Source: Minisyncoccota bacterium (GTDB lineage: Bacteria > Patescibacteriota > Minisyncoccia > Phycocordibacterales > JABAAK01). From it: a stretch of 64,000 nt of DNA. Below the pieces are notes generated by a model, which worked only from the letters and a program-made list of their open reading frames with translations, searched no databases and was not told where the DNA came from. Both the position numbers and the translations under genes were made by a program. The stretch lies in NCBI GenBank assembly GCA_958295675.1, contig OY282360.1:466026-530025 (forward strand), written 5' to 3'. Shown here piece after piece: positions 12,281-63,431 of this stretch; positions within the stretch are counted from its first letter, which is position 1; the number at the start of each line of letters is the position of its first letter.

Positions 12281-12880
12281 TCAGAGTGAATCAAGCCACG
12301 CTTGTACATCTTGTACACCCGCATCCTCTGCCAGGGTAGCGAGTATTGCCAGCGGTGTGTTGGGATTGCGACTAACCACATACCGAACATACGCCTTTGC
12401 ATCCTCTGCCAGGGTAGCGAGTATTGCCGGCGGTGTGTTGGGATTAAGAGCAACCCCGTGCCGGGCACCCATATCCGCATCCTCTGCCAGGGTAGCGAGT
12501 ATTGCCGGCGGTGTGTTGGGATTACGACCAACCCTAAACCGAACATACCCATCCGCATCCTCTGCCAGTCGTGCAAGTGCTTCCGACGGTGTCATGCTGT
12601 TGCCAGCAACTGCCTCTCGCACTCTCCAAACTACATCCTCTGCCAGGGTAGCGAGAATTGCCGGCGGTGTGCGCGACGAAGAAGCAACCCTATACCGAAC
12701 CTCCCACTCCGCATCCTCTGCCATGACGGCGAGGGATGTCGGCGATATCGGTGCAGTGATGCGAGCAGCACTGGGGAGAGGTTCCAGTATTGCAATCCGC
12801 GACGCGTCTTCGGCATGCACCGAAACCGAAATGCCCGACAGGGTGAGTACGAGTACACTCAAAAGCGTGAATAGTTTCAT
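12281..12880 (-). CDS. Secreted LRV/HEAT-like repeat protein (199 aa)
   Basis: True start at ATG 12880 (MKLFTLLSVLVLTLSGISVSVHAEDA). The signal peptide is nearly identical to that of the 10470..12053 gene, and LRV repeats follow. Confidence 0.7.
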   Translation of the reverse strand: MKLFTLLSVLVLTLSGISVSVHAEDASRIAILEPLPSAARITAPISPTSLAVMAEDAEWEVRYRVASSSRTPPAILATLAEDVVWRVREAVAGNSMTPSEALARLAEDADGYVRFRVGRNPNTPPAILATLAEDADMGARHGVALNPNTPPAILATLAEDAKAYVRYVVSRNPNTPLAILATLAEDAGVQDVQAWLDSL

Positions 12881-12940
12881 TATGACCTCCTTTGGTCTCT
12901 GTGTGAAAGAACAGAAAGCAATCTGCTCCACCTAGTATAT

Positions 12941-12970
12941 AGTATACATGTGTTAGTATAATATGTCAAA
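12941..12970 (-). promoter_or_regulatory. Duplicated sigma70-like promoter (TTGACA-17-TATACT) for the LRV gene 12281..12880
   Basis: Sequence 12893-12990 is near-identical to 12063-12150. Confidence 0.5.
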
Positions 12971-13020
12971 TACCCCCCCCCGAGATATCCTTGTTTTTCA
13001 AGGTATTTTAACACAAAGGA

Positions 13021-14025
13021 CTATTTATTCAGCAATAAACACTCTAACGGTAATACTTTTATGGATGATCGTGGAATAGCATACGATGCTTCCAGAAGGT
13101 CTGTAAGCATGGTGAGTGTCAGACCTTCTTTTTTTGATAATGTATCAATAAACTGTCTGTCGTCTTCAGTATATTCCTCAACAATATCAGTTACCTGTTC
13201 ACGCAACAGAAGTGCGGCGCGCAGTTTCCGTATACATAATTTAGCGAAGAGCGGGATATTCGCATTTGTTTGTGACGCGGTAGAAAGAGCAGCAACACCG
13301 GCAGCGATATCATGATCCGCAAGTGCCGCAAGATACTCATTTATCAACCGATGTTTAGGTGCGCCGAGCACTTCTTCTGCAAGTTGATGATCCACGGTCT
13401 TGCCGTCGGCAACAAACAGGATTTTTTGAAGCAATGTGAGTGTGTCACGGAATGATCCTTCTGCCATTAATGCGACAAGGGCGGCGGATTGTTTGGTGAT
13501 CACAAATCCTTCTTTCTTCGCCGCCTCAATGGCTGTATTCTGCAGAACGGCAAGCGACGGCTGCTGAAATTGCAGCGATACACAACGGGAAACAACAGTT
13601 TCCGGTACCTTTTCCGCTTCAGTGGTGACAAGTATAAAAATAACATGCGCGGGCGGTTCTTCCAATGTTTTAAGAAATGCATTGAAAGCTGACTTTGAAA
13701 GCATATGCACTTCATCAAGAATATACACTTTGTACTCCGACTCAACCGGCTGTGTGTACACTGACGCGGTGATATCCCTGATATGCTCAACACTGGTGTG
13801 AGATGCCGCATCAATTTCAAACACATCTATATCCTTACACTGCATTGTCTTTGCGAAAATGCGCGCAATGCTGGTCTTACCGATACCGCGCGGACCGGTA
13901 AACAGGTAGGCATGAGCGGGAGCACCCTGCTTCGCCGCCTTTTCAAGAACGGAAACAACTTGCGGCTGTTCAATAACATCCTCAAATAATTGCGGTCTGT
14001 GTTTTTGGTACAACGCTCGATCCAT
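13021..14025 (-). CDS. dnaX: DNA polymerase III clamp-loader subunit gamma/tau (short form, 334 aa)
   Basis: Walker A GPRGIGKTSIARIFAK. KVYILDEVHMLSKSAFNAFLKTLEEPPAHVIFILVTT is almost identical to the canonical DnaX box. Confidence 0.88.
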   Translation of the reverse strand: MDRALYQKHRPQLFEDVIEQPQVVSVLEKAAKQGAPAHAYLFTGPRGIGKTSIARIFAKTMQCKDIDVFEIDAASHTSVEHIRDITASVYTQPVESEYKVYILDEVHMLSKSAFNAFLKTLEEPPAHVIFILVTTEAEKVPETVVSRCVSLQFQQPSLAVLQNTAIEAAKKEGFVITKQSAALVALMAEGSFRDTLTLLQKILFVADGKTVDHQLAEEVLGAPKHRLINEYLAALADHDIAAGVAALSTASQTNANIPLFAKLCIRKLRAALLLREQVTDIVEEYTEDDRQFIDTLSKKEGLTLTMLTDLLEASYAIPRSSIKVLPLECLLLNK

Positions 14026-14062
14026 ACATCTACATACTACACTACCGTTGCATAGCCGATAT

Positions 14063-15049
14063 TCACCTGTTTGGCATCTGCTGTGGCATACAAGTAATAA
14101 AGTGTTTCACACGCCGTTCAACATCATTAGCGCATTCGGCATGTTCCATGAGATCTGTCCGTAGTTCTTTTGCGCCGTCAAACCCATTCACATATGCCTT
14201 GTAATGTTTCTTCATAATGGAAAAACGCTTTACAGATAGATTTTCCTCAAAAAGTCGGGTATGTTCAATAAGCGCAAACAATTTTTTCTTCACTGTGATC
14301 GATTCCGGTACATCTCCGCTGAAAAACCAAGGATTACCGAAAATGCCGCGCCCTATCATTACACCGTCACATCCGGTCTCTGACACACGCAACCGCGCCT
14401 CAGACATACTTACCACATCACCATTGCCGATAATTAAAGTGCCGGGAGCAATAGCATCGCGCAGTGTGACGATGTGCCTCATACGCTCCCAGTGCGCCGG
14501 CACTTTGGACATTTCTTTCCGGCTCCGCAAATGTACGGTAAGCGCGGCGATACCGGTTCGCAGTAATGTGGGTATCCATGTATCTATCTCATCTACGGCA
14601 TATCCGATTCTCGTCTTCACCGATACTGGCAACCCGGTTTGTTTCGCCGCTGTTATGACTTCAACAGCAGTTTTCGGGGATGTAATCAATGCGGCACCGC
14701 TTCCCTGTTTCTCAACGCTTCGGTCAGGACATCCCATATTGATATCAAGCCCGTCAAATCCGAGGGTTTGAACATGCTTCCCTGCTGTGTACATATTTTC
14801 AGGATTTGAAGTGAATAGTTGCGCGACAATCGGTCGCTGATTCTCCTCAAAAAGCAAATCAACATACAGTGATTCGCGTCCGGGAGAACACAGACCGTCA
14901 GCGGAGACAAACTCGGTCCAGAATATATCCGGCTTACCGTATCGGGCAAACATGGAACGAAAGGCGACATCAGTCACATCCGCCATCGGTGCAATTGCAA
15001 AAAATGGACGGAGGAGTGTGTCCCAGAAAGACGAAGATAATGTGTTCAT
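14063..15049 (-). CDS. tRNA-dihydrouridine synthase (Dus family)
   Basis: TIM-barrel Dus motifs (APMADVTDVAFR, DINMGCP, VSVKTRIG). The start is placed at the internal Met MNTLSS. Confidence 0.82.
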   Translation of the reverse strand: MNTLSSSFWDTLLRPFFAIAPMADVTDVAFRSMFARYGKPDIFWTEFVSADGLCSPGRESLYVDLLFEENQRPIVAQLFTSNPENMYTAGKHVQTLGFDGLDINMGCPDRSVEKQGSGAALITSPKTAVEVITAAKQTGLPVSVKTRIGYAVDEIDTWIPTLLRTGIAALTVHLRSRKEMSKVPAHWERMRHIVTLRDAIAPGTLIIGNGDVVSMSEARLRVSETGCDGVMIGRGIFGNPWFFSGDVPESITVKKKLFALIEHTRLFEENLSVKRFSIMKKHYKAYVNGFDGAKELRTDLMEHAECANDVERRVKHFITCMPQQMPNR

Positions 15050-15882
15050 AGTCCGGTGCCGCCATTCCGTTCCCGACATCCCCATTGCAGCGGTTCACGA
15101 CTCGTCCAATACACCTGCAACGGATCACAAATAGCAATGGATGCGATTTCAGACCGGCTGTCTGAATCGGGAAAAATCTCAACAAGAGTCGCATGCAGTG
15201 CCCGCATAATATCGTAGGGATTTTCTGACATATCAATCCACACACTAACACCGCCGGTTGACTGTATATGCGCATCGTATCCTCCTTTTCGTACCGCGAT
15301 ATATTCAATGAACAAACCTCTCTCCTCTAAAAATTGCAGCACTTCGTGTATTTTATAGAAATGTTCCTCATTCTCACCAGTCGGCATGAACAAATAATCA
15401 CCGACAGCGACCTCACCGGAAATTTTTAATTCACGACCGGTTCGCACAGCGTCAGTTTCACCGAATATAAAACCGTCTGTATCCACAAGCAAACAGCGGG
15501 ACAACGCGCAGTAGGTACCGAAAATTTCCCTGTTAGTCGCTGTTATATGCCATGTATTAAAAAATTTATTCTCTATTTCAACATGATCAAGATGAAGAAA
15601 TTCCTGACGAATCATATCAACAACTTTTCCTCGCTGAAAATAGTACCGTACTGATCCGGGAACAATAAGCCAGGAATCATCCAGCAAATCTTCAATATAC
15701 CGGACAACATCCTCCTGAAGCATCTCCGTTATATCGGACTCCGGATTGATATGAACCGAACGAACGGAAACAAGTGGTAAATGAAGCACAGCAAATAAAA
15801 GCAGTACGCACACACAAAAGATTAAACAAAAACGGCTCATAATGAATAGCAGTCGCCGGCTGGAACGCCGTGCAAACCACAT
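15046..15882 (-). CDS. Membrane-anchored hypothetical protein (possibly an FtsQ/DivIB-like POTRA protein)
   Basis: N-terminal TM helix (LLFIMSRFCLIFCVCVLLLFAV) followed by an alpha/beta domain. No firm motif was found. The start is uncertain because the ORF overlaps the neighbouring genes. Confidence 0.35.
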   Translation of the reverse strand: MWFARRSSRRLLFIMSRFCLIFCVCVLLLFAVLHLPLVSVRSVHINPESDITEMLQEDVVRYIEDLLDDSWLIVPGSVRYYFQRGKVVDMIRQEFLHLDHVEIENKFFNTWHITATNREIFGTYCALSRCLLVDTDGFIFGETDAVRTGRELKISGEVAVGDYLFMPTGENEEHFYKIHEVLQFLEERGLFIEYIAVRKGGYDAHIQSTGGVSVWIDMSENPYDIMRALHATLVEIFPDSDSRSEIASIAICDPLQVYWTSREPLQWGCRERNGGTGL

Positions 15883-15929
15883 TTGCACCTTTGTTTTCAA
15901 TCTTCTTCTTCTCATAATATTTTTTTCCG

Positions 15930-17207
15930 CTATATCTCCCGTTTTCCGCCCATATATGACCAAAGTACTTCGGGCACGGCTATAGTGCCGTCCTCCTGCT
16001 GTCCGTTTTCAAGAAGGGCAATGAGTATGCGCCCCAACGCGAAAACAGTCGCATCATTCATATGCGCGAATTCTTTCTCACCTGAATTCCGTTTTACTTT
16101 GATCCCGAGCCGGCGGGATTGGTATTCACCGATTAAATCCGCGGAATGTGTTTCCCGATACAGATCCTGTCCGGGCATCCATGTTTCAATATCTATCTGC
16201 CGCACATCGGGCAGACCCATGTCGCCGGTACAGACAATAACCACCTGATACGGTAAACCGAGCTGCTGCATGAGATACTCCTGCACCGCCACCAAAAAAT
16301 CCTGCTCCTCTTTTGACTTCTCACCAACTGTGAATGATTCAAATTCAAGTTTATCAAACTGATGCAGGCGAAGAATACCCTTGGTATCCCTGCCATAAGA
16401 ACCGGCTTCCCGTCGGAATGCGGTGGAATAGCCGATATACCGCTTCGGCAATTCGTTTTCCTCAAACATCTCATCCGCATGCATAGCTCCGAGCGCATGC
16501 TCGGCACTGCCGGTCAGAAACAAATCATCTTCAGAAATAAAATATTTATCCTCACGCGGTTCAAGCCGCGCCATGCCGAAAAACATTTTCGGAGTGATCA
16601 TCATCGGTGGCACTACCGGCACAAACGGAACAGAGGGTACGGTCAGATTGTTGTGCGTAATAATCTCATTAAGAACCCGCTCATCCGTTACGACATCAAA
16701 TACCCATTGGATAAGCGCGAACTGCAGCCGCACCGCATCGTTCTTCAGAAAGGTAAACCGAGCACCGGCAACTTTTGCGGCTCGTTCGTTGTCTATAAAA
16801 TCCCGTTCTTTACCGATATCCCAGTGCGCCTTCGGCTGAAAATTAAAAGATGGCTTCTCACCCCATCGGCGCAGCACTGCATTGCCGCTCTCATCTTTGC
16901 CGATTGGCGTGTCCGGAGACGGCACATTTGGAATCAACGCGATCATATCCGTCAAATCCTTAGTGACGGAGCGAAGTGTTTCCTCAGCATCGGCAAGCTG
17001 TTGTTTCAACGCGCCTCCTCTTTCCGCATCCCGCGCATCAGCGGCTGCTTTTCGCTCCTGATTTATACTGCCAATCCTCCGGACCAATTCAGTCCGCTGG
17101 TTATATAGTGCTTCAAGACGATCAAAATCAACCGGATCTTTGTTCTTATTCTCAATCGCCTGCCGAACAATATCCTTATTTTCCAATATAAATGCGATGT
17201 CCAACAT
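15930..17207 (-). CDS. serS: Seryl-tRNA synthetase
   Basis: N-terminal coiled-coil tRNA-binding arm and class II motifs (FRREAGSYGRDTKGILRLHQFDKLE, GLPYQVVIVCTGDMG). Confidence 0.9.
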   Translation of the reverse strand: MLDIAFILENKDIVRQAIENKNKDPVDFDRLEALYNQRTELVRRIGSINQERKAAADARDAERGGALKQQLADAEETLRSVTKDLTDMIALIPNVPSPDTPIGKDESGNAVLRRWGEKPSFNFQPKAHWDIGKERDFIDNERAAKVAGARFTFLKNDAVRLQFALIQWVFDVVTDERVLNEIITHNNLTVPSVPFVPVVPPMMITPKMFFGMARLEPREDKYFISEDDLFLTGSAEHALGAMHADEMFEENELPKRYIGYSTAFRREAGSYGRDTKGILRLHQFDKLEFESFTVGEKSKEEQDFLVAVQEYLMQQLGLPYQVVIVCTGDMGLPDVRQIDIETWMPGQDLYRETHSADLIGEYQSRRLGIKVKRNSGEKEFAHMNDATVFALGRILIALLENGQQEDGTIAVPEVLWSYMGGKREI

Positions 17208-17265
17208 ATCAGTGAGTATACCACATCACCGCCATAGAACTATCCGCCGTTTTACTTTTTCAATG

Positions 17266-19293
17266 CTATTTTTCCAGATTTTCAAGGTATCTGATCTCAT
17301 CGCGTATAATTGCCGCGGTTTCAAAATCAAGTTCAGCAACGGCATCCGCCATCTTTCGCTCTTTTTCCCGTATTGTTTTCTTCGGTGCCTTTTTATACTG
17401 CTCAACATCAAAGACCGCAAGCGATGATACTGTTTTCTTTCTTTTTTCCTCAAGGTCTTCAGTAATGTCTTTGATATTTTTCTGTATTGTCTTCGGTGTG
17501 ATATGATGCTTTTTATTATGCGCAATCTGCAAGACACGCCGGCGATTGGTCTCATCAATAGCCCGTCTCAATGAACCGGTCACGGTGTCGGCATATAAAA
17601 TGACGCGACCTTCGGCATTTCTCGCGGCACGACCGATAGTTTGAATAAGCGAGGTTTCCGACCGGAGAAAACCCTCTTTGTCCGCGTCAAGAATAGCGAC
17701 TAATGTCACCTCCGGCAGGTCCAGCCCTTCGCGCAGCAGATTCACACCGACAAGCACATCAAACACTCCCTTGCGAAACTGCGTGAGAATTTCAATCCGT
17801 TCAATCGTTTTAACATCGCTATGGACATAATTTGCCTCTATACCCGCCTCTTCAAGATATGAGACAAGATCTTCGGCGGTCTTTTTGGTGAGTGTGGTGA
17901 CCATCACCCTGTTTTTCTTCACAATTTCTTTCTTTGCTTCAACGATAAAATCACGAACTTGCCCTTCATAAGTATTACTTCCGGTCACCGCGTGCACCGC
18001 GATTTCCGGATCCACCAGTCCGGTCGGACGAATAATTTGTTCAACAATATGGTTACCGCTGTGCCGTTTCTCATATTCATCAGGCGTCGCTGAAGTATAC
18101 ACTACCTGCCCGACTTGCTCTTCAAACTCCTCAAAGGTCAACGGACGGTTATCTCTCGCCGACGGCAAACGAAAACCATGCTCAACCAGTGTGTTTTTCC
18201 TTGAACGGTCTCCAGCGTACATACCGGATATCTGCGGCACAGTCACATGTGATTCATCTATAACAGTAAGGAAATCAGGTGTACCGTCAGCACTGTGCGG
18301 AAAGTACGACAAAAGCGTATGCGGCGGATCACCCTCACTTCGTCTGTCAAAATGCCGGGAATAGTTCTCAATACCGTTGCAGTATCCTATCTCCTCTATA
18401 AGTGACAGGTCCTGCAATGTTCGGCGGCGCAGGCGCTCCCGTTCTAATACCTTACCCTGCCGATCCAGCAAAGCAAGTTGTTCCTCTAATTCTGCCCGTA
18501 TGGACACGGTAGCATGGCGTTTATCATCTTCACCGGAAACAAAATGTTTTGCCGGAAAAAGAAAGAACACATCAACTGATTCTTCTTCTATCGCCCGTGT
18601 CAGCGCGTTAATACGCGTGATATGTTTCACCGTGTCATCCGAAAACGAAAGGCGATATATCACCTCTTCGTTAACGGGCATAATCTCAACCGCACCCGCG
18701 ATAACACGAACGGTGCCGGGTTGCAACTCTCCTGTCGTCCGCTCAAAATACAACTCAACCGCCTTTCGCACAAGCATCTCACGAGTGAATCGTGCACCCT
18801 GTTCAATACGGACATGCACTTTCTCATACTCTTCAGGACTGCCGAGACCGTATATACAGGAAACCGAAGCGACAACGATCACATCATTTCTGGTCAGCAG
18901 TGCCTGCGTCGCCGCATGCCGCAAACGGTCAATCTCTCTGTTCACCAATGCTTCCTTCGCTATGTAGGTATCAGAACCGGGCACATACGCTTCCGGCTGA
19001 TAATAATCATAGTAAGAAACAAAGTAATGTACCGGACTGTCCGGAAAAAACTCGCGATACTCCTGTGCTAACTGCGCCGCGAGGGTTTTGTTATGTGCAA
19101 TAACCAATGTCGGCTTACCCAATTTTGCTATGACATTAGCCATTGTAAATGTCTTTCCGGAACCGGTCACACCCATAAGTGTCTGATGCTGTGCACCTGA
19201 GGAAAGACCGTCAAGAAGCGATTGTATTGCCTTCGGCTGATCCCCCGCCGGCTGTTTTTCATCAGAAAGAACAAAAGAATTATTGAACTTCAT
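17266..19293 (-). CDS. uvrB: Excinuclease ABC subunit B
   Basis: PAGDQPKAIQSLLDGL, GVTGSGKTFTMANVIAK, a helicase C-terminal region and a UVR domain at the C-terminus. The start is set at the internal Met MKFNNSF. Confidence 0.95.
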   Translation of the reverse strand: MKFNNSFVLSDEKQPAGDQPKAIQSLLDGLSSGAQHQTLMGVTGSGKTFTMANVIAKLGKPTLVIAHNKTLAAQLAQEYREFFPDSPVHYFVSYYDYYQPEAYVPGSDTYIAKEALVNREIDRLRHAATQALLTRNDVIVVASVSCIYGLGSPEEYEKVHVRIEQGARFTREMLVRKAVELYFERTTGELQPGTVRVIAGAVEIMPVNEEVIYRLSFSDDTVKHITRINALTRAIEEESVDVFFLFPAKHFVSGEDDKRHATVSIRAELEEQLALLDRQGKVLERERLRRRTLQDLSLIEEIGYCNGIENYSRHFDRRSEGDPPHTLLSYFPHSADGTPDFLTVIDESHVTVPQISGMYAGDRSRKNTLVEHGFRLPSARDNRPLTFEEFEEQVGQVVYTSATPDEYEKRHSGNHIVEQIIRPTGLVDPEIAVHAVTGSNTYEGQVRDFIVEAKKEIVKKNRVMVTTLTKKTAEDLVSYLEEAGIEANYVHSDVKTIERIEILTQFRKGVFDVLVGVNLLREGLDLPEVTLVAILDADKEGFLRSETSLIQTIGRAARNAEGRVILYADTVTGSLRRAIDETNRRRVLQIAHNKKHHITPKTIQKNIKDITEDLEEKRKKTVSSLAVFDVEQYKKAPKKTIREKERKMADAVAELDFETAAIIRDEIRYLENLEK

Positions 19294-45409: not shown

Positions 45410-46171
45410 TTATTTCAGCAGCATTTCCTTGAGGTACCAGAATCTGTCTGGTTTTTTTGAAATTATTCTTCTTATTTTTTCCTCCACTTCCGCCTCAAAC
45501 GGAAAATGGTTACGCATGTCACGCAAGAAATTCGTAATCAAACGAATTGCTTGTCTGTCAGAAAAAGTGATGATGATTTGAACAGCGCGCAGGACAATGT
45601 CCTGACGACAACTGACCATATTACACTTTTCGCTCTGATCAATCGTCCGCTGCCAAAATTCGATGTGAAAAAGCGCAGTCATGACCTCATTGCACCTGCT
45701 AATCCGCACATTCCCTTCACCGCATTTCACTGTGCTAACCTCTCCCGTTTCAAAGAGAATGATGGACTGATGTCCCGGAAGCATGTGCAACAGATTCGCA
45801 TCCGAATCACGCAGCAGGGTATAAGACAAAGGAACCTTTTCCCAAGCCGTAAGCCGTTTCAAATCGTGAAAAATCGCTTTCCACGAAACGCTTGATTGAT
45901 GTTCTCCTTCCGACGGAAGAAAACTCACCTTGAGATAAACGCCTGCCTGACCCGTCAGATTACAACGATCAATCACCGTACCGTCACCAAACAACCAGGA
46001 AGGTTTGATCGTTTGCGAATCTAAAACCCGAAAACAATTCTGCCGATTCGGGTTATACGGCAGAATGTTCACTACATTTGCAAGGCGTACAACTGGACTC
46101 ACGCCGAAACTAGAAAAAGCAGCGGGGGTTTTTTCAACCACACGGAATTTCTTCATTTGTGTTTCCTCCAC
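45410..46171 (-). CDS. Hypothetical protein (253 aa)
   Basis: Intact ORF followed by a terminator. No motif was recognised. Confidence 0.4.
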   Translation of the reverse strand: MEETQMKKFRVVEKTPAAFSSFGVSPVVRLANVVNILPYNPNRQNCFRVLDSQTIKPSWLFGDGTVIDRCNLTGQAGVYLKVSFLPSEGEHQSSVSWKAIFHDLKRLTAWEKVPLSYTLLRDSDANLLHMLPGHQSIILFETGEVSTVKCGEGNVRISRCNEVMTALFHIEFWQRTIDQSEKCNMVSCRQDIVLRAVQIIITFSDRQAIRLITNFLRDMRNHFPFEAEVEEKIRRIISKKPDRFWYLKEMLLK

Positions 46172-46382
46172 AAGTGGAAATTTACGGGTACTCTAATTGC
46201 ACCCTAAAATAGTATACCAGTGCAGAATAAATATAACAACAGGAAATATAAAATAATAATTAGCGTAAAAAGCAAGAAAATACAATAAGTACCGAACAGT
46301 ATTATACACCGCTACCACAAAATACAAAAAAGAATCGCGGTGATTCCGAAGAATCACCGCGATGTAAGAAGAAAGGGAGTAA

Positions 46383-47381
46383 CTACTTGTTCCCACCAAT
46401 CCCCTTCTTAAGCGAGGATGCCATGTCCTCGCTCATGATGGAAGGAGCCGCCGGCGCCCTCTTACTCTGCTGCTTCCAGGAAAAACGGTAGAGTTTGTCC
46501 ATCGCCCGATTGAACAGACGATTTTGGCGATCGTTCAAGTCACAGGAATTCAAGAACTTTTTCAAACCCTCTACCTGCTTATCGACTTGCTTTGCAAAGT
46601 CCTCCTCGAGAGAGGTGGACTCATCGCCTTCAAAAGCCAACATGTTCAGAAGGTTTATCGCCTCCCAGGCAACAGAGGAACGATACTTGTTGATATTCCT
46701 TTTGTTAAGAAAACGCAATCTCTTCGAAACAATATCGAAGAATCTCTTGCTCCGGAAGAAGAAGGCGGTCTCGACGTTGAGAACGGAACGATTGGCATCG
46801 CCACTCTCTCTGTTAAGCAAATCAAGACCTTTCTCCGTATAGGAGATGATCTGGACCTCCCCTGTCGGCAGAAGAAGCGCGACAAAGGTGTTCGGACGAA
46901 ACTGCACCAACACCTCACCACTTCCCTGAGCGGGAACGAAAGCCGGTTTCCGGTCATCCAAATGAATGGTGCACGAACCCGTCCAAAAGGTATAACCGGC
47001 TTCCGAACGGAGATCAAACTTCACAAGCACCCGTTCATCATCACGGCCATCCGGTTTCGCAAGAAAATAGGAAGGTTTTTCACCCGCCTCGTTATTGCTT
47101 TCCACCAACGCGCGACGGCAGCGGACGAAGCCCGCCTTCTCATCCGTGTAGAGAGGACCCTTAAGCGGTCGAGGGATTGACCGCCCTCCCGCACGAAGCC
47201 ACAGTTGACCATCTTCTGGGGCATCCCACTCTAGCGAGACGCCCTCACTGATGACGAAGTCGCTGGTGTCGGAATTCCATGCTGCGGTGTATGCCGTTGC
47301 CGGCAGCTTGGCCTCCCTTTTCAGCAGTGTGCTGGCGGGGTTGACCGTGACAAGGTCGTCAACGGAAATCTTTATGGCCAT
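46383..47381 (-). CDS. Hypothetical protein (332 aa)
   Basis: Intact ORF. No motif was recognised. Confidence 0.4.
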   Translation of the reverse strand: MAIKISVDDLVTVNPASTLLKREAKLPATAYTAAWNSDTSDFVISEGVSLEWDAPEDGQLWLRAGGRSIPRPLKGPLYTDEKAGFVRCRRALVESNNEAGEKPSYFLAKPDGRDDERVLVKFDLRSEAGYTFWTGSCTIHLDDRKPAFVPAQGSGEVLVQFRPNTFVALLLPTGEVQIISYTEKGLDLLNRESGDANRSVLNVETAFFFRSKRFFDIVSKRLRFLNKRNINKYRSSVAWEAINLLNMLAFEGDESTSLEEDFAKQVDKQVEGLKKFLNSCDLNDRQNRLFNRAMDKLYRFSWKQQSKRAPAAPSIMSEDMASSLKKGIGGNK

Positions 47382-47533
47382 GAGCCATCCTCCTTTTACT
47401 GAAAAAGAAACAAATGCTTACCTCCACACTCTCGAGCGAAGATCAGCATCTTTTGAAAAAGAAAATGGAGAGATAGTAACTTCAATCTCACCATTATGTC
47501 CGTTATGTATTATACAGTAAAATAAATAAATAG

Positions 47534-47755
47534 TCAAATAAAAAACACCGGAGGTGAAACATCCCAACAATCAGCACGATTGGCACGATGCTTCACTTTC
47601 CGGCAATATTTGCTCCGATCCCGTTCGGTACGGGAACGGAACTGAGGATTCGTCACCAAATCTTTGGCAACCCAATTCCCTGCTTTGTGCGACTCAAGCT
47701 GCTTAAGCCGCCGACGCTGCCGTTTTGACAGCCCTTTTTTAGCAACCGTGCTCAT
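47534..47755 (-). CDS. Small basic hypothetical protein (73 aa)
   Basis: Lys/Arg-rich ORF. It may not be a real gene. Confidence 0.25.
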   Translation of the reverse strand: MSTVAKKGLSKRQRRRLKQLESHKAGNWVAKDLVTNPQFRSRTERDRSKYCRKVKHRANRADCWDVSPPVFFI

Positions 47756-47860
47756 GCTCTCCTCCGTTTCAGGTTTGCTACACTATATATAATAGCAAAA
47801 TATAGAATATTTGTCAAAATTTCAATAAAACACTTACAAAGAGGAGTATCTCCTATATAC

Positions 47861-47889
47861 TTGACAATTCAATAAAAATTGTGTATTAT
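47861..47889 (+). promoter_or_regulatory. Strong sigma70-type promoter TTGACA-17-TATTAT
   Basis: ttgaca attcaataaaaattgtg tattat. The transcription start site is predicted near 47896. Confidence 0.6.
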
Positions 47890-47895
47890 ATATAT

Positions 47896-48036
47896 GGGTG
47901 ACGGGCGGATGCGACTCTATACGATATTGGCTACAGTCCACCCTACCCCTTCGGGACTGCGCCCTCTCCGTCATCACCTTTATACTTATCAGGCACCCCC
48001 TGCGGTTCTCCGCAGGCGGTGCCTACCACTTTTTTA
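47896..48036 (+). ncRNA. Candidate ~140-nt small RNA (unknown family) between consensus promoter and intrinsic terminator
   Basis: 5' GGGUGACGG pairs with 3' CCGUCAUCACC. It has an internal CCC-UUCG-GGG hairpin and a terminal hairpin ggcaccccctgcgg/ccgcaggcggtgcc followed by UUUUUU. It has no coding potential. Confidence 0.45.
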
Positions 48037-48136
48037 ATACATACACTAAGGTTCTTAGTGCGTACTGATACTAACTATAATACACCCCACCTTTTTTAAC
48101 TTGTATAATTACTATTTTATTGGTATAGTATTTATT

Positions 48137-48589
48137 GGAGATGGGAAGTGTCCCATCAAGACCCCATCAGGTAGGGAAGGGATTGGTACTCTCTTCGTGA
48201 AGGTGCGTGGTACTTAGAGAAAGCGTTTAGTGTGGAAAGGGTGGATCGGCGGTGTAATTCCCCGAAAATTCCGAAATGTCCCTCATTCTTTAACAAGGAT
48301 TGAGGTTTGGGTAACTGTGATGGACGAGCATAAACCACTTACCAATGGTTTGTGCAAACTCTCGTCTATTGCAGCGCCGGACCTGCTGGCAGTGGGTGCT
48401 GTCCAAGCCTGCGTGAGCCTTCCGACGTATATATGCCAAGGTTTCTGCACGCTGGGAACGGCTGCCATTGCTACGGCCGCGCGCCACAAAACATTTCCAA
48501 ACACTGAAAAAGGTCGGTAACATCCCGAGTGCCTGCTTCCTGTCTCCACCCCACACACATGTACATGTGTGTGGGGTGCATTCTTTTTT
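48137..48589 (+). ncRNA. Candidate large structured RNA, copy 1 (~450 nt, unknown class)
   Basis: Promoter TTGTAT-17-TATAGT at 48101-48129. Conserved sequence blocks are shared with copy 2 (gggaagtgt, ggtgyaattcccc, caaggattgaggtt, ttccgacgyatayagccaaggwtt, aaacactgrmaaaaggtcggtamcatc). The overlapping ORFs of the two copies are not similar at the protein level. It ends in a hairpin terminator at 48549-48589. Confidence 0.4.
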
Positions 48590-48796
48590 ACTCTGTGTCA
48601 GGTACCAGTAGAACACCTGCGCACCATTTTCTCATATCCTTCTCATCTGTACCTAACCTGCGTGGGGTGATTTTTTGCTGGCTATCAATGCTCTATATAG
48701 GCGGTGCTTTTTCCCACTTTGTATGCATGTGACAAGTGCTTTGTTAGGTTTTGATATCATAAATATAGCAAGGGATACACCTCTATGGTATAAAAC

Positions 48797-48824
48797 TTGC
48801 GAAAAATTGATCGTTTGCTATAAT
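48797..48824 (+). promoter_or_regulatory. Sigma70-type promoter TTGCGA-16-TATAAT for RNA element copy 2
   Basis: ttgcga aaaattgatcgtttgc tataat. Confidence 0.55.
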
Positions 48825-48831
48825 ACCATGC

Positions 48832-49314
48832 AGAAGATGGGAAGTGTTGGTGTGTCACAAAAAACACAACGGATTCTCATCAAGCGGGGAAGAAAGTCAT
48901 TTTCTGCTTGTGAGAATATTCAGATACTCCCGATGCAGCGTTTCAGTGCGGATACGAGTGGACCGGTGGTGCAATTCCCCGGAAAGCTTGAAGTGTCCTC
49001 GTCCTTTTGCAAGGATTGAGGTTGGCTACCGCATAGACAAGCAACTCACACTGTACCGCAGTGGTTTAAAAAAAGTGCTTGTCTTTGTACGGTTCACGAA
49101 CCCCCTGGTTCTGGAAGCTAGAGCTCATCAGCGAGTAGTAAGTGGATTCTTCCGACGCATACACGCCAAGGATTCCGCTCGCCGAGTTGGCTAACCATTA
49201 CCAACGGTCGTGTACATAAAATCACTTCCGAAACACTGGCAAAAGGTCGGTACCATCGGATATCGAACCTTCCCATCTTCTTCTTACCCCACCTATGTGT
49301 GGGGTGATTTTTTT
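48832..49314 (+). ncRNA. Candidate large structured RNA, copy 2 (~480 nt, paralog of 48137-48589)
   Basis: Same conserved blocks in the same order as copy 1, with variable intervening segments. Terminator ccccacctatgtgtgggg+T7 at 49287-49314. Confidence 0.4.
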
Positions 49315-49435
49315 GCTGGCTATCAATGCTCTATATAGGCGGTGCTTTTTCCCACTTTGTATGCATTTGACAAGTACTTTGTTAGATGTTGCTATCATAA
49401 GTATGTCAAAGGATACATCCCTTTCCTATATATAC

Positions 49436-49464
49436 TTGCGAAAAGGTATGAAATATTGTAGTAT
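49436..49464 (+). promoter_or_regulatory. Sigma70-type promoter TTGCGA-17-TAGTAT for the small membrane protein gene
   Basis: It sits in a repeated module homologous to 48656-48830. Confidence 0.5.
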
Positions 49465-49524
49465 AGATATTAAAGGTAGCAGTAAGGTGCCTTTGTTCTG
49501 TTCATTGCAAAAAGGAAGCGATTG

Positions 49525-49851
49525 ATGTCAAGAAACACCGCAGATGTTGATAGGAATGAAGAAGGTTTTCTTTCCTCATTCCCGGAAAACATCTTTCTCT
49601 TTGCACCCTTCATGATCTTGGGCGCGGGTTTCGTTAGCATACTGGTGTTCAAAACACCTTTCATGCCGACAATGCTCACCAGCGTGACGATCTTGATCAT
49701 AACCGCCTGCACTTTTTTGTTTGAGATGGCTGCGCGGTCTGAGCATAACGATCTACCTGCGAAATGGATCCTTGTCGGACTACTACTTGCACTTGCCTCT
49801 TTTGGGACCTTAACGGGGCTGTCTTGGCAGCTGCACATCGGGTGCACATAA
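49525..49851 (+). CDS. Small membrane protein (108 aa, 3 predicted TM helices)
   Basis: RBS aggaag 7 nt upstream of ATG 49525, hydrophobic segments, and a terminator ccccttcctctgcggaagggg+T7 at 49871-49899. Confidence 0.5.
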   Translation: MSRNTADVDRNEEGFLSSFPENIFLFAPFMILGAGFVSILVFKTPFMPTMLTSVTILIITACTFLFEMAARSEHNDLPAKWILVGLLLALASFGTLTGLSWQLHIGCT

Positions 49852-50042
49852 TCGGAACAACCACCACAATCCCCTTCCTCTGCGGAAGGGGATTTTTTTA
49901 TAGTATCCGTGTGTTCTTTTGTACTGTAGATTTCCGGATATGTATCTTGTAGCATTTTTTGCTATGATAGTTCCGGCTTCCCATCTTCTCCTTACCCCCA
50001 CCTATGTGGGGTGATTTTTTTATCACATACCGGATAACACTA

Positions 50043-52691
50043 TCAGGATTTTTTCTTGAGAACTTTTTTTAAATACTGACCGGTATAACTGCCGGACTCT
50101 TTTGCCACAGATTCAGGAGTTCCCGCAACAACGATAGTGCCGCCGCGCTCACCGCCTTCCGGACCTATGTCCACAACATAATCCGCATTCTTAATCACAT
50201 CCAAATTGTGTTCAATCAGCAATACTGTATTACCGCGATCCACCAGACGGTTTAATATCTCTATGAGCCGACGAACATCTTCATAATGCAGACCGACGGT
50301 CGGTTCATCCAGCAGATACATAGTTTTTCTGGTATTCGGTCGGTACAGTTCGGAGGCAATTTTCACCCGCTGCGCTTCACCGCCGGAAAGTGTTGTGGAC
50401 GGCTGACCGAGTTCAAGGTAGCCGAGACCGACATCAACCAAAGTGCTCAGGCGATCATGAATTGTCGGTATGTGCTTAAAAAATTCCGCTGCCTCTTCGG
50501 TCGGCATCACGAGCACTTCATGAATATTTTTCCCGCGATAAGTGGTATCCAACACCTCCTTGCTGTATCGCTTGCCGTGACATTCATCGCAAATCACATA
50601 CACCGTCGGCAGGAAATGCATCTCAACGGCGATAGAGCCGTTCCCTTCGCACTTCTCACATCGTCCGCCGGGGACATTAAATGAAAATCGTCCTGATTTC
50701 CAACCGCGATACCGCGCGTCCTCAGTCGCGGCAAAAAGGTCGCGAATATGCGTAAACGCGCCGACATAGGTGACGGGCGTAGAACGCGGCGTGCGTCCTA
50801 TGGGCGATTGGTCAACCAGCACAACCCTGCTTAAATCAGTATATCCCTCAAACACCTTTGTATTAAAATTTCTCTTCACCGTCAGCCGCCGCTCAAGTTT
50901 GTGACGCAAATTTTTGTACACAATATCATACAGCAGCGTTGACTTCCCCGATCCGGAAACACCGGTAATCGCCACCAGCCGTCCGAGCGGAATGGTAACG
51001 CTCACATTATTAATATTATTCGCCGTCGCACCGCGCAGCGTCAGCTGACCCCGATTCTCAGTCCGCCGCCGCTCAGGAACGGCAATCAGCCGGTCTCCGC
51101 GCAGATACGAAAGTGTCAGCGATCCGGAAGAATTGCGCTTGCTCGTGAGCAGCGATTCAAGAAAACCGGAGACGACCACTTCCCCGCCATGTTTCCCCGC
51201 TGCCGGCCCTATATCAACGATATAGTCGGCCGCGAAGATGGTGTCCTCATCATGCTCAACAACAATGATGGTATTACCGAGATCACGCAGATGCAGCAGA
51301 GTCCGTATTAACCGGTCATTATCCCGTTGATGCAGACCGATGGTGGGTTCATCAAGCACATATAACGCACCGACCAAACCGGAACCGAGCTGTGAAGCGA
51401 GCCGTATCCGCTGCGCTTCACCGCCGGAGAGCGTATTTGCCTTACGGTTCAGGGTCATGTACTCAAGCCCGACATTCCTCAAAAAAGTGATGCGGCTGAT
51501 TATTTCATTCAGCAGCGGTTCCGCGATATCCTGCTGCTGCTTGTTAAGCGTTAATTCACCAAAAAAAGAAGCGGCATGCTCAACGGTTAATCCGATAATC
51601 TCATGTATGCTATGCTTTCTTTTTTTGCCGGTAATAAAGACATGAAGCGCTTCAGGACGGAGTCGCGCGCCGTGACAGGCACCGCATGGTTCATCATCAA
51701 ACACATCAACCTGCCCGAGACCGTTGCATTCAGGACACGCGCCGTACGGTGAATTGAACGAAAACAAACGCGGTTCAATTTCAGGAAAAGAAAAACCGCA
51801 GGCGGGACACAGAAAGCGGGACGAAATGAGGGATTCAGAGCCGTCCGGATAACCGAGACGCACAAGACCGTCCGCCTCATGAATGGATCGCTCAACGGCA
51901 TCCGACAGCCGTTCACGGAACACGCGCGGATCCTTGGCATAGTCGCTGATATACAGCGCATCAACATGTATATCAATATCATGTTTCTTGGTCTTGCTGA
52001 GTGTGAGACGATTCCGAAGAGCATGTTCAGCACCGTCAACACGCGCGGTTTCATACCCTTTCCGCAACATATCATAGAGCAGCTGGTAGTATTCCCCTTT
52101 TCGGCCGATGACAAGCGGCGCAAGCACACGGAGTATCCTCTCGTTATACGCAACCCCGGCAACCGAACTACTCTTCTCCAACCACTTCTCCCGCTTGATC
52201 TTCCGTTCAATCCGCCGCACAATCTCATCCTTAGAAACCTTCTCAATCACATGCGAACATGACGGACAAAACGGCGTGCCGACACGGGAAAAGAGTACCC
52301 GAAGATAGTCGTACACTTCAGTGATGGTCGCGACGGTTGAACGCGGATTGTTGGACCTATTCTTCTGATCAATAGAAATAGCGGGAGAAAGACCGGTAAC
52401 TTCCCGAATCTCCGGCTTCTGCATCTGCCGAAGAAACTGCCTGGCATACGCGGAAAGCGATTCAACATACCGTCGCTGCCCTTCAGCGAAGATGGTGTCA
52501 AACGCCAGCGATGACTTGCCGGATCCGGAGATACCGGTACATACCGTCAGCATATTGCGCGGAATATCAACATCAATGTTTTTCAGATTATGCGTTGACG
52601 CGCCGCGAATGCGAATCCATTTGCTGTCATGCGCCATTCCGCTCTTTTTCGCGCGCGCGCCGCTTTGTTTCTTTTTTCTTTTTTCCGGCAT
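50043..52691 (-). CDS. uvrA: Excinuclease ABC subunit A
   Basis: Two ABC modules ([14 protein letters not shown] and [14 protein letters not shown]), zinc-finger Cys clusters and the [12 protein letters not shown] signature twice. The start is set at the internal ATG (MPEKRKKK), since the ORF track N-terminal extension is Cys/hydrophobic read-through. Confidence 0.95.
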
Positions 52692-63360: not shown

Positions 63361-63431
63361 CGGACTGTAGCATAATGGTAGTGTGCACGCATGGGGTGCG
63401 TGTGGTTCGGGTTCGATTCCCGGCAGTCCGA
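63361..63431 (+). tRNA. tRNA-Pro (anticodon GGG)
   Basis: Manual fold: acceptor CGGACUG/CAGUCCG, D-arm GCAU-AAUGGUA-GUGU, anticodon stem CACGC/GCGUG with loop AUGGGGU (anticodon GGG), T-arm UCGGG-UUCGAUU-CCCGG and discriminator A. CCA is not encoded. Confidence 0.65.

Follow-up and report, generated by a model that had tools for sequence, protein, structure and literature searches.

Two tandem units, probably structured RNA genes, between uvrC and uvrA of a Patescibacteria bacterium, candidates for a new class of large non-coding RNA

Introduction

Bacterial RNAs that are longer than 400 nucleotides (nt) and adopt a complex fold are rare; among those described are RNase P RNA, the group I and group II introns, OLE, GOLLD (about 800 nt), ROOL and raiA. 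Several of them have proved to be catalysts or remarkable assemblies. Bacteria of the Candidate Phyla Radiation (CPR, or Patescibacteria) account for much of bacterial diversity and have minimal, densely coded genomes, and a literature search on such RNAs in CPR bacteria found no description of them. Here we analyse a stretch of 64,000 nt from contig OY282360.1 (assembly GCA_958295675.1, positions 466,026 to 530,025; hereafter the window, numbered from its first letter), in which two adjacent plus-strand units lie between uvrC and uvrA. In the best-supported reading of their sequence, these units would be two independently transcribed, tandem paralogous non-coding RNA (ncRNA) genes with compactly folded products of about 410-450 nt, for which Rfam 15 holds no matching model.

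Among the described large RNAs, ROOL (581 nt; Weinberg et al. 2017, PMC5737381) and GOLLD are stand-alone, multi-junction molecules of unknown function, which often lie in variable or prophage regions outside conserved operons and in which a conserved core is surrounded by variable peripheral helices (Weinberg et al. 2017, PMC5737381; Kretsch et al. 2025, PMC12286853). As predicted here, the two units would resemble them in these respects. They differ from ROOL and GOLLD in being shorter, at 410-450 nt, and in giving no covariance-model match at E≤10. Moreover, ROOL and GOLLD are often situated beside transfer RNA (tRNA) genes or in prophages and have been found in several phyla, whereas here the nearest tRNA gene is 14 kb off, no phage genes were recognised, and the units are known from one genome. 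The units fall within a general kind, that of large, complex-folded bacterial ncRNAs of unknown function in variable regions. Because no described large-ncRNA family matches them, they are put forward as a candidate new ncRNA class.

Results

Two paralogous units with ordered conserved blocks

The two paralogous units occupy 48137-48589 and 48833-49314 on the plus strand, as reported in a preliminary description made from the DNA letters of this region. All of the ordered conserved blocks listed there were recovered by pairwise alignment of the two copies and by a repeat finder (families D4, D5, D6, D9, D11 and D13). The exact shared runs are AGATGGGAAGTGT (13 nt), AATTCCCCG (9 nt), CAAGGATTGAGGTT (14 nt), CTTCCGACG (9 nt), GCCAAGG (7 nt), AAACACTG (8 nt) and AAAAGGTCGGTA (12 nt). 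Pattern searches with three of the blocks located each at exactly two sites in the 64 kb, both within the two units, and a blastn search of the region against the window revealed no further full copy.

The bodies of the two units (copy 1, 48137-48547, 411 nt; copy 2, 48833-49280, 448 nt; both on the plus strand) are 59.8% identical over aligned columns, and this identity is distributed very unevenly. It reaches 75% in the core formed by blocks B-D, 80% in block E and 83% in block F, and falls to 56% in the 5' arm of V2 and to 36% in the variable arm V1, so that exact runs of 7-14 nt are embedded in a background of 36-55% identity. The spacers between the blocks are of unequal length in the two copies and near-random in sequence, and the shift between copies differs from block to block, which agrees with the length-variable, non-conserved spacers described before.

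From block to block, the copy-to-copy offset amounts to 696, 717, 716, 730, 732 and 733 nt, that is, 0, 0, 2, 1, 0 and 1 modulo 3; no reading frame therefore spans the conserved blocks. The blocks themselves are identical at every position, with third-base wobble absent. The longest open reading frames (ORFs) overlapping the two copies encode products that share no significant protein similarity, again in line with the preliminary description. When the six-frame translations of both copies were joined and compared with 5.8 billion proteins, no match was obtained at E≤10, and none of eight ORFs looked up from the 48-49.9 kb stretch is present in a collection of 15 billion proteins. Both copies open with GGAG-AUG-GGA-AGU-GU; by hand translation, their frames diverge after four codons and end after 19 and 61. 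The preliminary description had held that a coding frame conserved across homologues would turn the units into small protein genes, and no such frame exists between the two copies; its preference for structured RNA over protein is supported by the frame-inconsistent offsets, the shared fold described below and the unrelated ORFs. On these comparisons of the two sequences, the protein-coding reading is rejected.

A predicted secondary structure common to both copies

Against dinucleotide shuffles, the minimum free energy (MFE) of the plus strand has a z-score of -6.1 in copy 1 and -4.4 in copy 2; in copy 1 the plus strand is clearly preferred, the minus strand reaching only z = -1.35. A common fold was drawn from RNAalifold, single-sequence folds and inspection, and was then checked base by base. 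With the common helices imposed, the fold lies above the unconstrained optimum by 1.4 kcal/mol for copy 1 and by 5.4 kcal/mol for copy 2. In a MAFFT alignment, all 43 pairs with corresponding columns are retained in each copy (three compensatory double changes and six wobble-mediated single changes), and pairing drops to 41-59% when the partners are slid by 1-3 columns. The evidence that a single shared fold fits both copies is good, not decisive.

The predicted fold is closed by P1, a 12-base-pair (bp) helix in which the initial 12 bases of the transcript pair with the last 12 ahead of the terminator (copy 1, 48137-48148 with 48536-48547, GGAGAUGGGAAG/CUUCCUGUCUCC; copy 2, 48833-48844 with 49269-49280, GAAGAUGGGAAG/CUUCCCAUCUUC). 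Between the copies one G-C pair of P1 is replaced by A-U and two wobble pairs by Watson-Crick pairs. The 5' hairpin domain inside P1 is variable and contains an extra hairpin in copy 2, where this domain has z = -5.0. P2 (copy 1, 48209-48215 with 48527-48533; copy 2, 48923-48935 with 49254-49264) has the same position in both copies and different sequences, GGUACUU/GAGUGCC in copy 1 and GAUA..CCGAUG/CAUCGG.UAUC in copy 2. In P3, block B, UUU(C)AGUG-YGGA-...GUGG, is paired with block F and the sequence preceding it, YCAC...UCCR-AAA-CACUG(G)AAA (copy 1, 48226-48236 with 48496-48508, plus 48241-48244 with 48484-48487; copy 2, 48941-48952 with 49227-49242, plus 48958-48961 with 49222-49225). Here a U-A pair becomes C-G, and copy 2 has an additional C that is balanced by an additional G in the facing strand.

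P3 leads into a predicted five-way junction from which hairpin C, hairpin D and the arms V1 and V2 emerge. Hairpin C (48246-48265 in copy 1 and 48963-48982 in copy 2) is T-loop-like, with the consensus stem YCGG-GG/CC-CCGR and the loop UGYAAUU; in copy 1 the stem is UCGG(C)GG/CCCCGA and the 7-nt loop UGUAAUU, and the closing pair changes from U-A in copy 1 to C-G in copy 2. T-loops follow the pattern U-N-N-R-A, into which a UGYAAUU loop closed by G-C fits. Hairpin D (48281-48305 and 48997-49021) consists of CCUCRUYCUU and AAGGAUUGAGG, the 3' strand being invariant between the copies; in copy 1 it reads CCUCAUUCUU/AAGGAUUGAGG with the loop UAAC. The junction hairpin with the invariant strand is CAAGGAUUGAGG.

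The variable arm V1 lies at 48315-48374 in copy 1, as a 23-bp hairpin, and at 49028-49093 in copy 2. The two V1 sequences are unrelated and yet form a stable hairpin in both copies (-28.3 kcal/mol and z = -7.9 in copy 1; z = -3.6 in copy 2), and in each case none of 200 shuffles folds as well. V2 (48375-48483 in copy 1, z = -2.3; 49095-49212 in copy 2) is a long irregular hairpin whose cap is the conserved block E, CUUCCGACG...GCCAAGG (48419-48441 in copy 1; family D5). The 3' strand of P3 is joined to that of P2 by a conserved purine-rich linker, which is AAAAGGUCGGUAACAUC in copy 1 (48508-48524) and lies at 49241-49257 in copy 2; its pattern has two exact sites in the window.

Two tertiary contacts are possible on sequence complementarity. 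CCGAC of block E (48422-48426) could form a pseudoknot with GUCGG of the linker (48513-48517), both being invariant in the two copies. The 5' GGGAAG block could also pair with block E, as GGAAGG/CCUUCC in copy 1 and GGAAGA/UCUUCC in copy 2, a pairing that competes with the local stem of block E.

Predicted promoters and terminators, and a repeated spacer

The promoters and terminators given here are consensus predictions. In front of copy 2, TTGCGA-16-TATAAT with TG upstream (48797-48824, plus strand) scores 10 of 12 matches in the consensus scan. The putative promoter of copy 1 (48101-48129, plus strand) combines a -35 element TTGTAT (48101-48106), a 17-nt spacer and an extended -10 element TGgTATAGT (48121-48129). 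It is weaker than near-consensus: its -35 element matches at three of six positions and was missed by the 4-of-6 rule of the scan. It is in register with the copy 2 promoter in the copy-copy alignment. The near-consensus sigma70 promoter that the preliminary description had placed before each copy is therefore borne out for copy 2 and overstated for copy 1. From either predicted promoter, transcription would begin some 7 nt downstream, on the first base of P1, the helix that joins the ends; for copy 1 the inferred start is about 48136-48137.

The GC hairpin and T-tract said to end each copy were both found by a terminator scan. The predicted intrinsic terminator of copy 1 (48547-48589, plus strand) has a 14-bp stem (48547-48578 in the scan) followed by the T-tract CAUUCUUUUUU, and that of copy 2 (49284-49314, plus strand) has a 9-bp stem (49284-49307 in the scan) followed by seven T (U7 in the RNA).

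The units stand as first placed, and the repeat is larger than had been described, as the 149-nt spacer from terminator to promoter is repeated too. Spacer module 1 (48659-48805, plus strand), between the two copies, is 88% identical to spacer module 2 (49296-49444, plus strand), which lies downstream of copy 2 and provides the promoter region of an ORF for a 109-amino-acid (aa) membrane protein. This identity is far above that of the RNA bodies (60%), which suggests homogenisation of the spacers or constraint on them. Because spacer identity is so well above body identity, the locus seems to resemble an array of promoter-payload-terminator cassettes, the frames of which are kept or homogenised and the payloads of which differ.

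A remnant of a further unit is found at 49977-50021 (plus strand), just before the end of uvrA. It is a 91% copy of the P1 3' strand and the copy 2 terminator, with no RNA body in front; a promoter upstream of it is not claimed, as similarity to the promoter module is weak there. A degenerate second stretch resembling a P1 strand and terminator follows the copy 1 terminator at 48650-48675. As far as these traces can be read, the unit array has gained and lost members. Separately, a short ORF with a basic product (MI..NK.LV.CIQSGKKHRLYRALIASKK...) was noticed by eye on the minus strand of both spacer modules; a ribosome-binding site is not obvious in front of it.

Comparison with known RNA families

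When the whole window was scanned with the 4227 models of Rfam 15 at gathering thresholds, the only match was the tRNA at 63361-63431. At E≤10, the region and each copy alone gave only short chance matches to terminator hairpins, for example mir-299 with 24 bits against a gathering score of 67. None of ROOL, GOLLD, OLE, HEARO, raiA, Cobalamin, RNase P and the introns was among the matches even at this level, which answers in the negative the comparison that the preliminary description had proposed with families named by it. ARAGORN detected neither a tRNA nor a transfer-messenger RNA in 47300-50100.

The units resemble the cobalamin riboswitch (RF00174) in a T-loop-type hairpin, GG-UGNAAUU-CC, and in AGGGAA and CACUG strings that are ordered as in the riboswitch core. 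In the riboswitch these strings are adjacent, whereas here they stand about 85 and 250 nt apart; no model match was obtained, and the units have their own predicted promoter and terminator instead of being leaders of cobalamin operons. The contiguous core AGGGAA / GGUGNAANUCC / CCCGCCACUG was not found in the units, its strings lying 85-250 nt apart, and neither copy contains a B12 box (AGYCMGGNGACCKGCC-like) within four mismatches. The sole ORF downstream of the units is that of the 109-aa membrane protein, which has no significant family match. The likeness to the cobalamin riboswitch thus reduces, at the level of sequence, to a T-loop-type hairpin and short strings far apart. The preliminary description was right to assign no cobalamin class, since GGUGYAAUUCC is a generic T-loop-like motif and the B12 box is absent.

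The units recall bacterial RNase P RNA in their similar size and, as folded here, in a P1 that joins the ends, in long-range helices nested inside it, in a T-loop-like element, and in a purine-rich conserved strand that directly precedes the 3' strands of P2 and P1. Unlike RNase P RNA, they give no match to its models and are present as two divergent copies in an accessory island that relatives lack, a setting at odds with an essential single-copy gene. Conserved region V (CR-V, ACAGAANNCGGCUUA) was not found within three mismatches in either copy, and the CR-I motif (GAGGAAAGUCC) is absent, with only a two-mismatch string in copy 2.

Searches for homologues

Block F had eight matches among 185,579 GTDB species genomes, in unrelated taxa, and they were treated as chance because none bears block C or D. 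Blocks C and D together had one match in the JGI metagenomes, apparently inside protein-coding sequence. Six scans of IMG/VR (blocks A, B, C, C and D together, E, and F) gave only seed-length matches after re-scoring with a two-copy nhmmer profile. These scans of large collections demand exact block matches, the GTDB and JGI sets were each scanned once, and the GTDB set scanned excludes the source genome; owing to the exact matches required and the single scans, the negative result on homologues is weak and means that none was reachable by these scans. No match was obtained by blastn against phage and plasmid collections. At the uvrA loci of nine relatives (78-83% UvrA identity), the two-copy nhmmer profile did not find the RNA, and when eight of these loci were searched with a covariance model built on blocks B-D, the single match, in L091, proved to be a terminator hairpin.

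The island between uvrC and uvrA

The named sources of the best UvrA relatives are Candidatus Kaiserbacteria, Paceibacterota or Parcubacteria, and by these names the host is placed in the CPR/Patescibacteria as a Kaiserbacteria/Paceibacteria-like bacterium. In the window, 4.6 kb (45410-50043) separates uvrC and uvrA. In two relatives with 83% UvrA identity (L001 and L088), uvrC comes almost directly after uvrA, and two others (L015 and L089) have short inserts at the site. From this comparison, 45410-50043 is an insertion relative to close relatives, which holds orphan genes (for proteins of 253, 332, 73 and 109 aa) and the RNA units. Its order is as follows: the 253-aa, 332-aa and 73-aa proteins, a small RNA-like unit, the two large RNAs, the 109-aa ORF and the body-less remnant. 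The GC content of the island is no different from that of its flanks and gives no hint of a foreign origin. Within the 64-kb window, the stretch from 47.4 to 50.0 kb alone lacks a long ORF, its stop-free runs reaching at most 113-163 aa.

The 253-aa and 332-aa proteins are orphans present only in this genome, and no paralogy between them is detectable. No phage genes were recognised in the island, where no PHROG match was significant. The 73-aa protein (47534-47755, minus strand) is very basic and is encoded divergently from the RNA units, with a predicted promoter, TTGACA-17-TATTAT, at 47817-47789. Its match to DUF7230 is sub-threshold (E = 0.0012) and its PHROG matches are weak. A likeness of this protein to the ribosome-rescue factor ArfA was considered and dropped: no ArfA chain was found at E≤10 among PDB sequences, and no ArfA family was returned from Pfam or NCBIfam.

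The membrane-protein ORF (108/109 aa; 49526-49851, plus strand) is preceded by the Shine-Dalgarno sequence AAAGGAAG and followed by a terminator of its own at 49868-49894, and its promoter is a copy of the promoter module used by RNA copy 2. It gave only sub-threshold family matches (to DUF6962, SLATT and 2TM effector models). Judged by eye, its product shows several apparent hydrophobic segments.

Upstream of copy 1 lies the small RNA-like unit (47861-48036, plus strand), which has z = -5.0 and its own predicted signals: its promoter, TTGACA-17-TATTAT (47861-47889), is near-consensus, and its terminator, at 47991-48024, is strong. About 90 nt of the unit are predicted to form a closed fold, GGGUGACGG...CCGUCAUCACC. 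The unit matches nothing in Rfam and is not similar to the two large RNAs.

In another relative, L016 (82% UvrA identity), the uvrA-uvrC site is occupied by a different insert (12800-18760, plus strand), a tandem array of nine small-protein genes. Their products are of 71-117 aa, charged and helical-looking, and each gene has a ribosome-binding site and ends in a GC-rich terminator; a repeated upstream module of 111-122 nt, 64-78% identical from gene to gene, stands in front of most of them. As L016 bears a different cassette array at the corresponding site, these data suggest that the uvrA-uvrC junction may be a hotspot for lineage-specific arrays of promoter-payload-terminator cassettes.

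Discussion

That the two units are functional structured RNA genes is, in our judgement, probable. Several points weigh against it. No homologue was found in any collection searched, and the units are known from one locus in one genome. In the pair-conservation analysis, which has just these two sequences to draw on, 62 of 500 shuffles reach the observed values, and the fold was derived from the very sequences on which it was tested, which gives it an advantage over the slid controls. In copy 2 there is little difference in folding between the plus and the minus strand. The island proteins have no recognisable domain (no significant matches in Pfam, PHROGs, PADLOC or NCBIfam), an AlphaFold model of the 332-aa protein is unusable, with a predicted local distance difference test (pLDDT) score of 40.6, and the protein partner proposed below is a pure inference.

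Some of these points would be expected if the units were non-functional, decaying duplicated DNA, either remnants of mobile elements or arrays of protein-binding DNA sites, with a fold that is a by-product of composition and of picking helices post hoc. Elements that are orphan in every collection searched, a two-sequence shuffle control that is not significant, and signs of decay such as the body-less remnant at 49977-50021 and the degenerate terminator at 48650-48675 all agree with such an origin. Neutral decay would scatter differences evenly, but the exact 12-14-nt runs adjoin arms of 36% identity; the unrelated V1 arms both fold far better than shuffles, pairing in P1, P3 and the hairpins survives every insertion, deletion and substitution there, and a predicted promoter and terminator exactly bracket the fold. 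We regard decaying DNA as quite unlikely. Little probability attaches, too, to tandem cis-acting leaders of the riboswitch or attenuator type, in which every fold would govern the terminator that follows it and read-through would regulate the membrane-protein gene at 49526-49851. The placement of each intrinsic terminator immediately 3' of the P1 strand would suit them, as would the position of the units upstream of this small ORF on the same strand, the resemblance of the GGUGYAAUUCC hairpin to the T-loop hairpin of the cobalamin riboswitch, and the precedent of tandem complete riboswitches. Against this stand a separate copy of the promoter module for every unit and for the ORF, a P1 3' strand that abuts the terminator stem without overlapping it, no evident anti-terminator alternative, and a length of 410-450 nt, several times that of a riboswitch aptamer; moreover, no riboswitch family at E≤10 and no B12 box was found in the units.

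The units could also be compared with CsrB/RsmZ-type sponge RNAs, which titrate a CsrA-like regulator via repeated GGA motifs. Such sponges commonly occur as tandem or multiple trans-acting paralogues with their own promoter and terminator, and some A(N)GGA-like motifs are present here: CAAGGAUU, which copy 2 has twice, and AAAAGG occur in conserved blocks, and ACAAGGAU matches the core of the CsrA consensus obtained by systematic evolution of ligands by exponential enrichment (SELEX). GGA is not enriched, with 10 and 11 motifs in the two copies against 7.7 and 7.2 expected (P = 0.22 and 0.09), and the conserved GGA of block D sits in a stem and not in a loop. The known sponges are strings of hairpins that display GGA in loops, whereas long nested helices and a multiway junction are predicted here, and no CsrA-like protein is among the scanned proteins of the window, which makes a sponge function very improbable. 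Least credible of all are small protein genes or leaderless messenger RNAs, each starting with Met-Gly-Ser-Val. An AUG does stand 5 nt from the inferred start in both copies, with the first four codons in common, ORFs of 96-116 aa overlap each copy, and the uvrA-uvrC site of a relative bears an array of real small-protein cassettes. This reading is contradicted by the early divergence and the stops after 19 and 61 aa in the hand translation, by block offsets that shift the frame without third-position wobble, and by ORF products that are unrelated to each other and to any protein at E≤10. In contrast to the ORF at 49526 and the L016 cassettes, the units also have no spaced Shine-Dalgarno sequence.

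If the units are functional structured RNA genes, P1 beside the terminator hairpin would shield both ends of the RNA and yield a stable particle. The invariant and largely unpaired AAAAGGUCGGUAMCAUC linker, the GAARUGUCC linker, the V2 cap and the T-loop-like hairpin would form a functional core that binds a partner, with tertiary contacts, possibly the CCGAC/GUCGG pseudoknot, within this core. The RNA would then act in trans as a stable folded particle bound to its partner. The likeliest partner would be a protein of the accessory island, for which the RNA would serve as the scaffold of a ribonucleoprotein, and the variable arms may be structural spacers or scaffolds, or specificity elements that tell the paralogues apart. 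Such an RNA, as we infer it, would be unlike a base-pairing small RNA or a cis-regulator. Since the island between uvrA and uvrC is lineage-specific, the function of the RNAs would be accessory and not core, and because this context is accessory and rich in orphans, a role tied to the proteins of the island itself is suggested. A more specific reading is that the two RNAs, perhaps with the upstream unit of about 140 nt, are the RNA subunits of a new RNA-protein accessory system together with the 332-, 253- and 73-aa proteins, carried in a swappable cassette array. We offer it tentatively, as rather unlikely.

The claim is limited, since the family is known from one locus. In a densely coded CPR genome, 2.6 kb of non-coding transcription units is conspicuous. 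If the RNAs are real, they would provide a first handle on the lineage-specific RNA biology of these uncultured episymbionts and would throw light on the variable cassette site between uvrA and uvrC. If, beyond this, the reading as an RNA-protein system is true, the units would represent a new class of large, ornate RNA in an episymbiotic lineage with scant known ncRNA biology, and would act in defence, in the interaction with hosts or in the biology of mobile elements.

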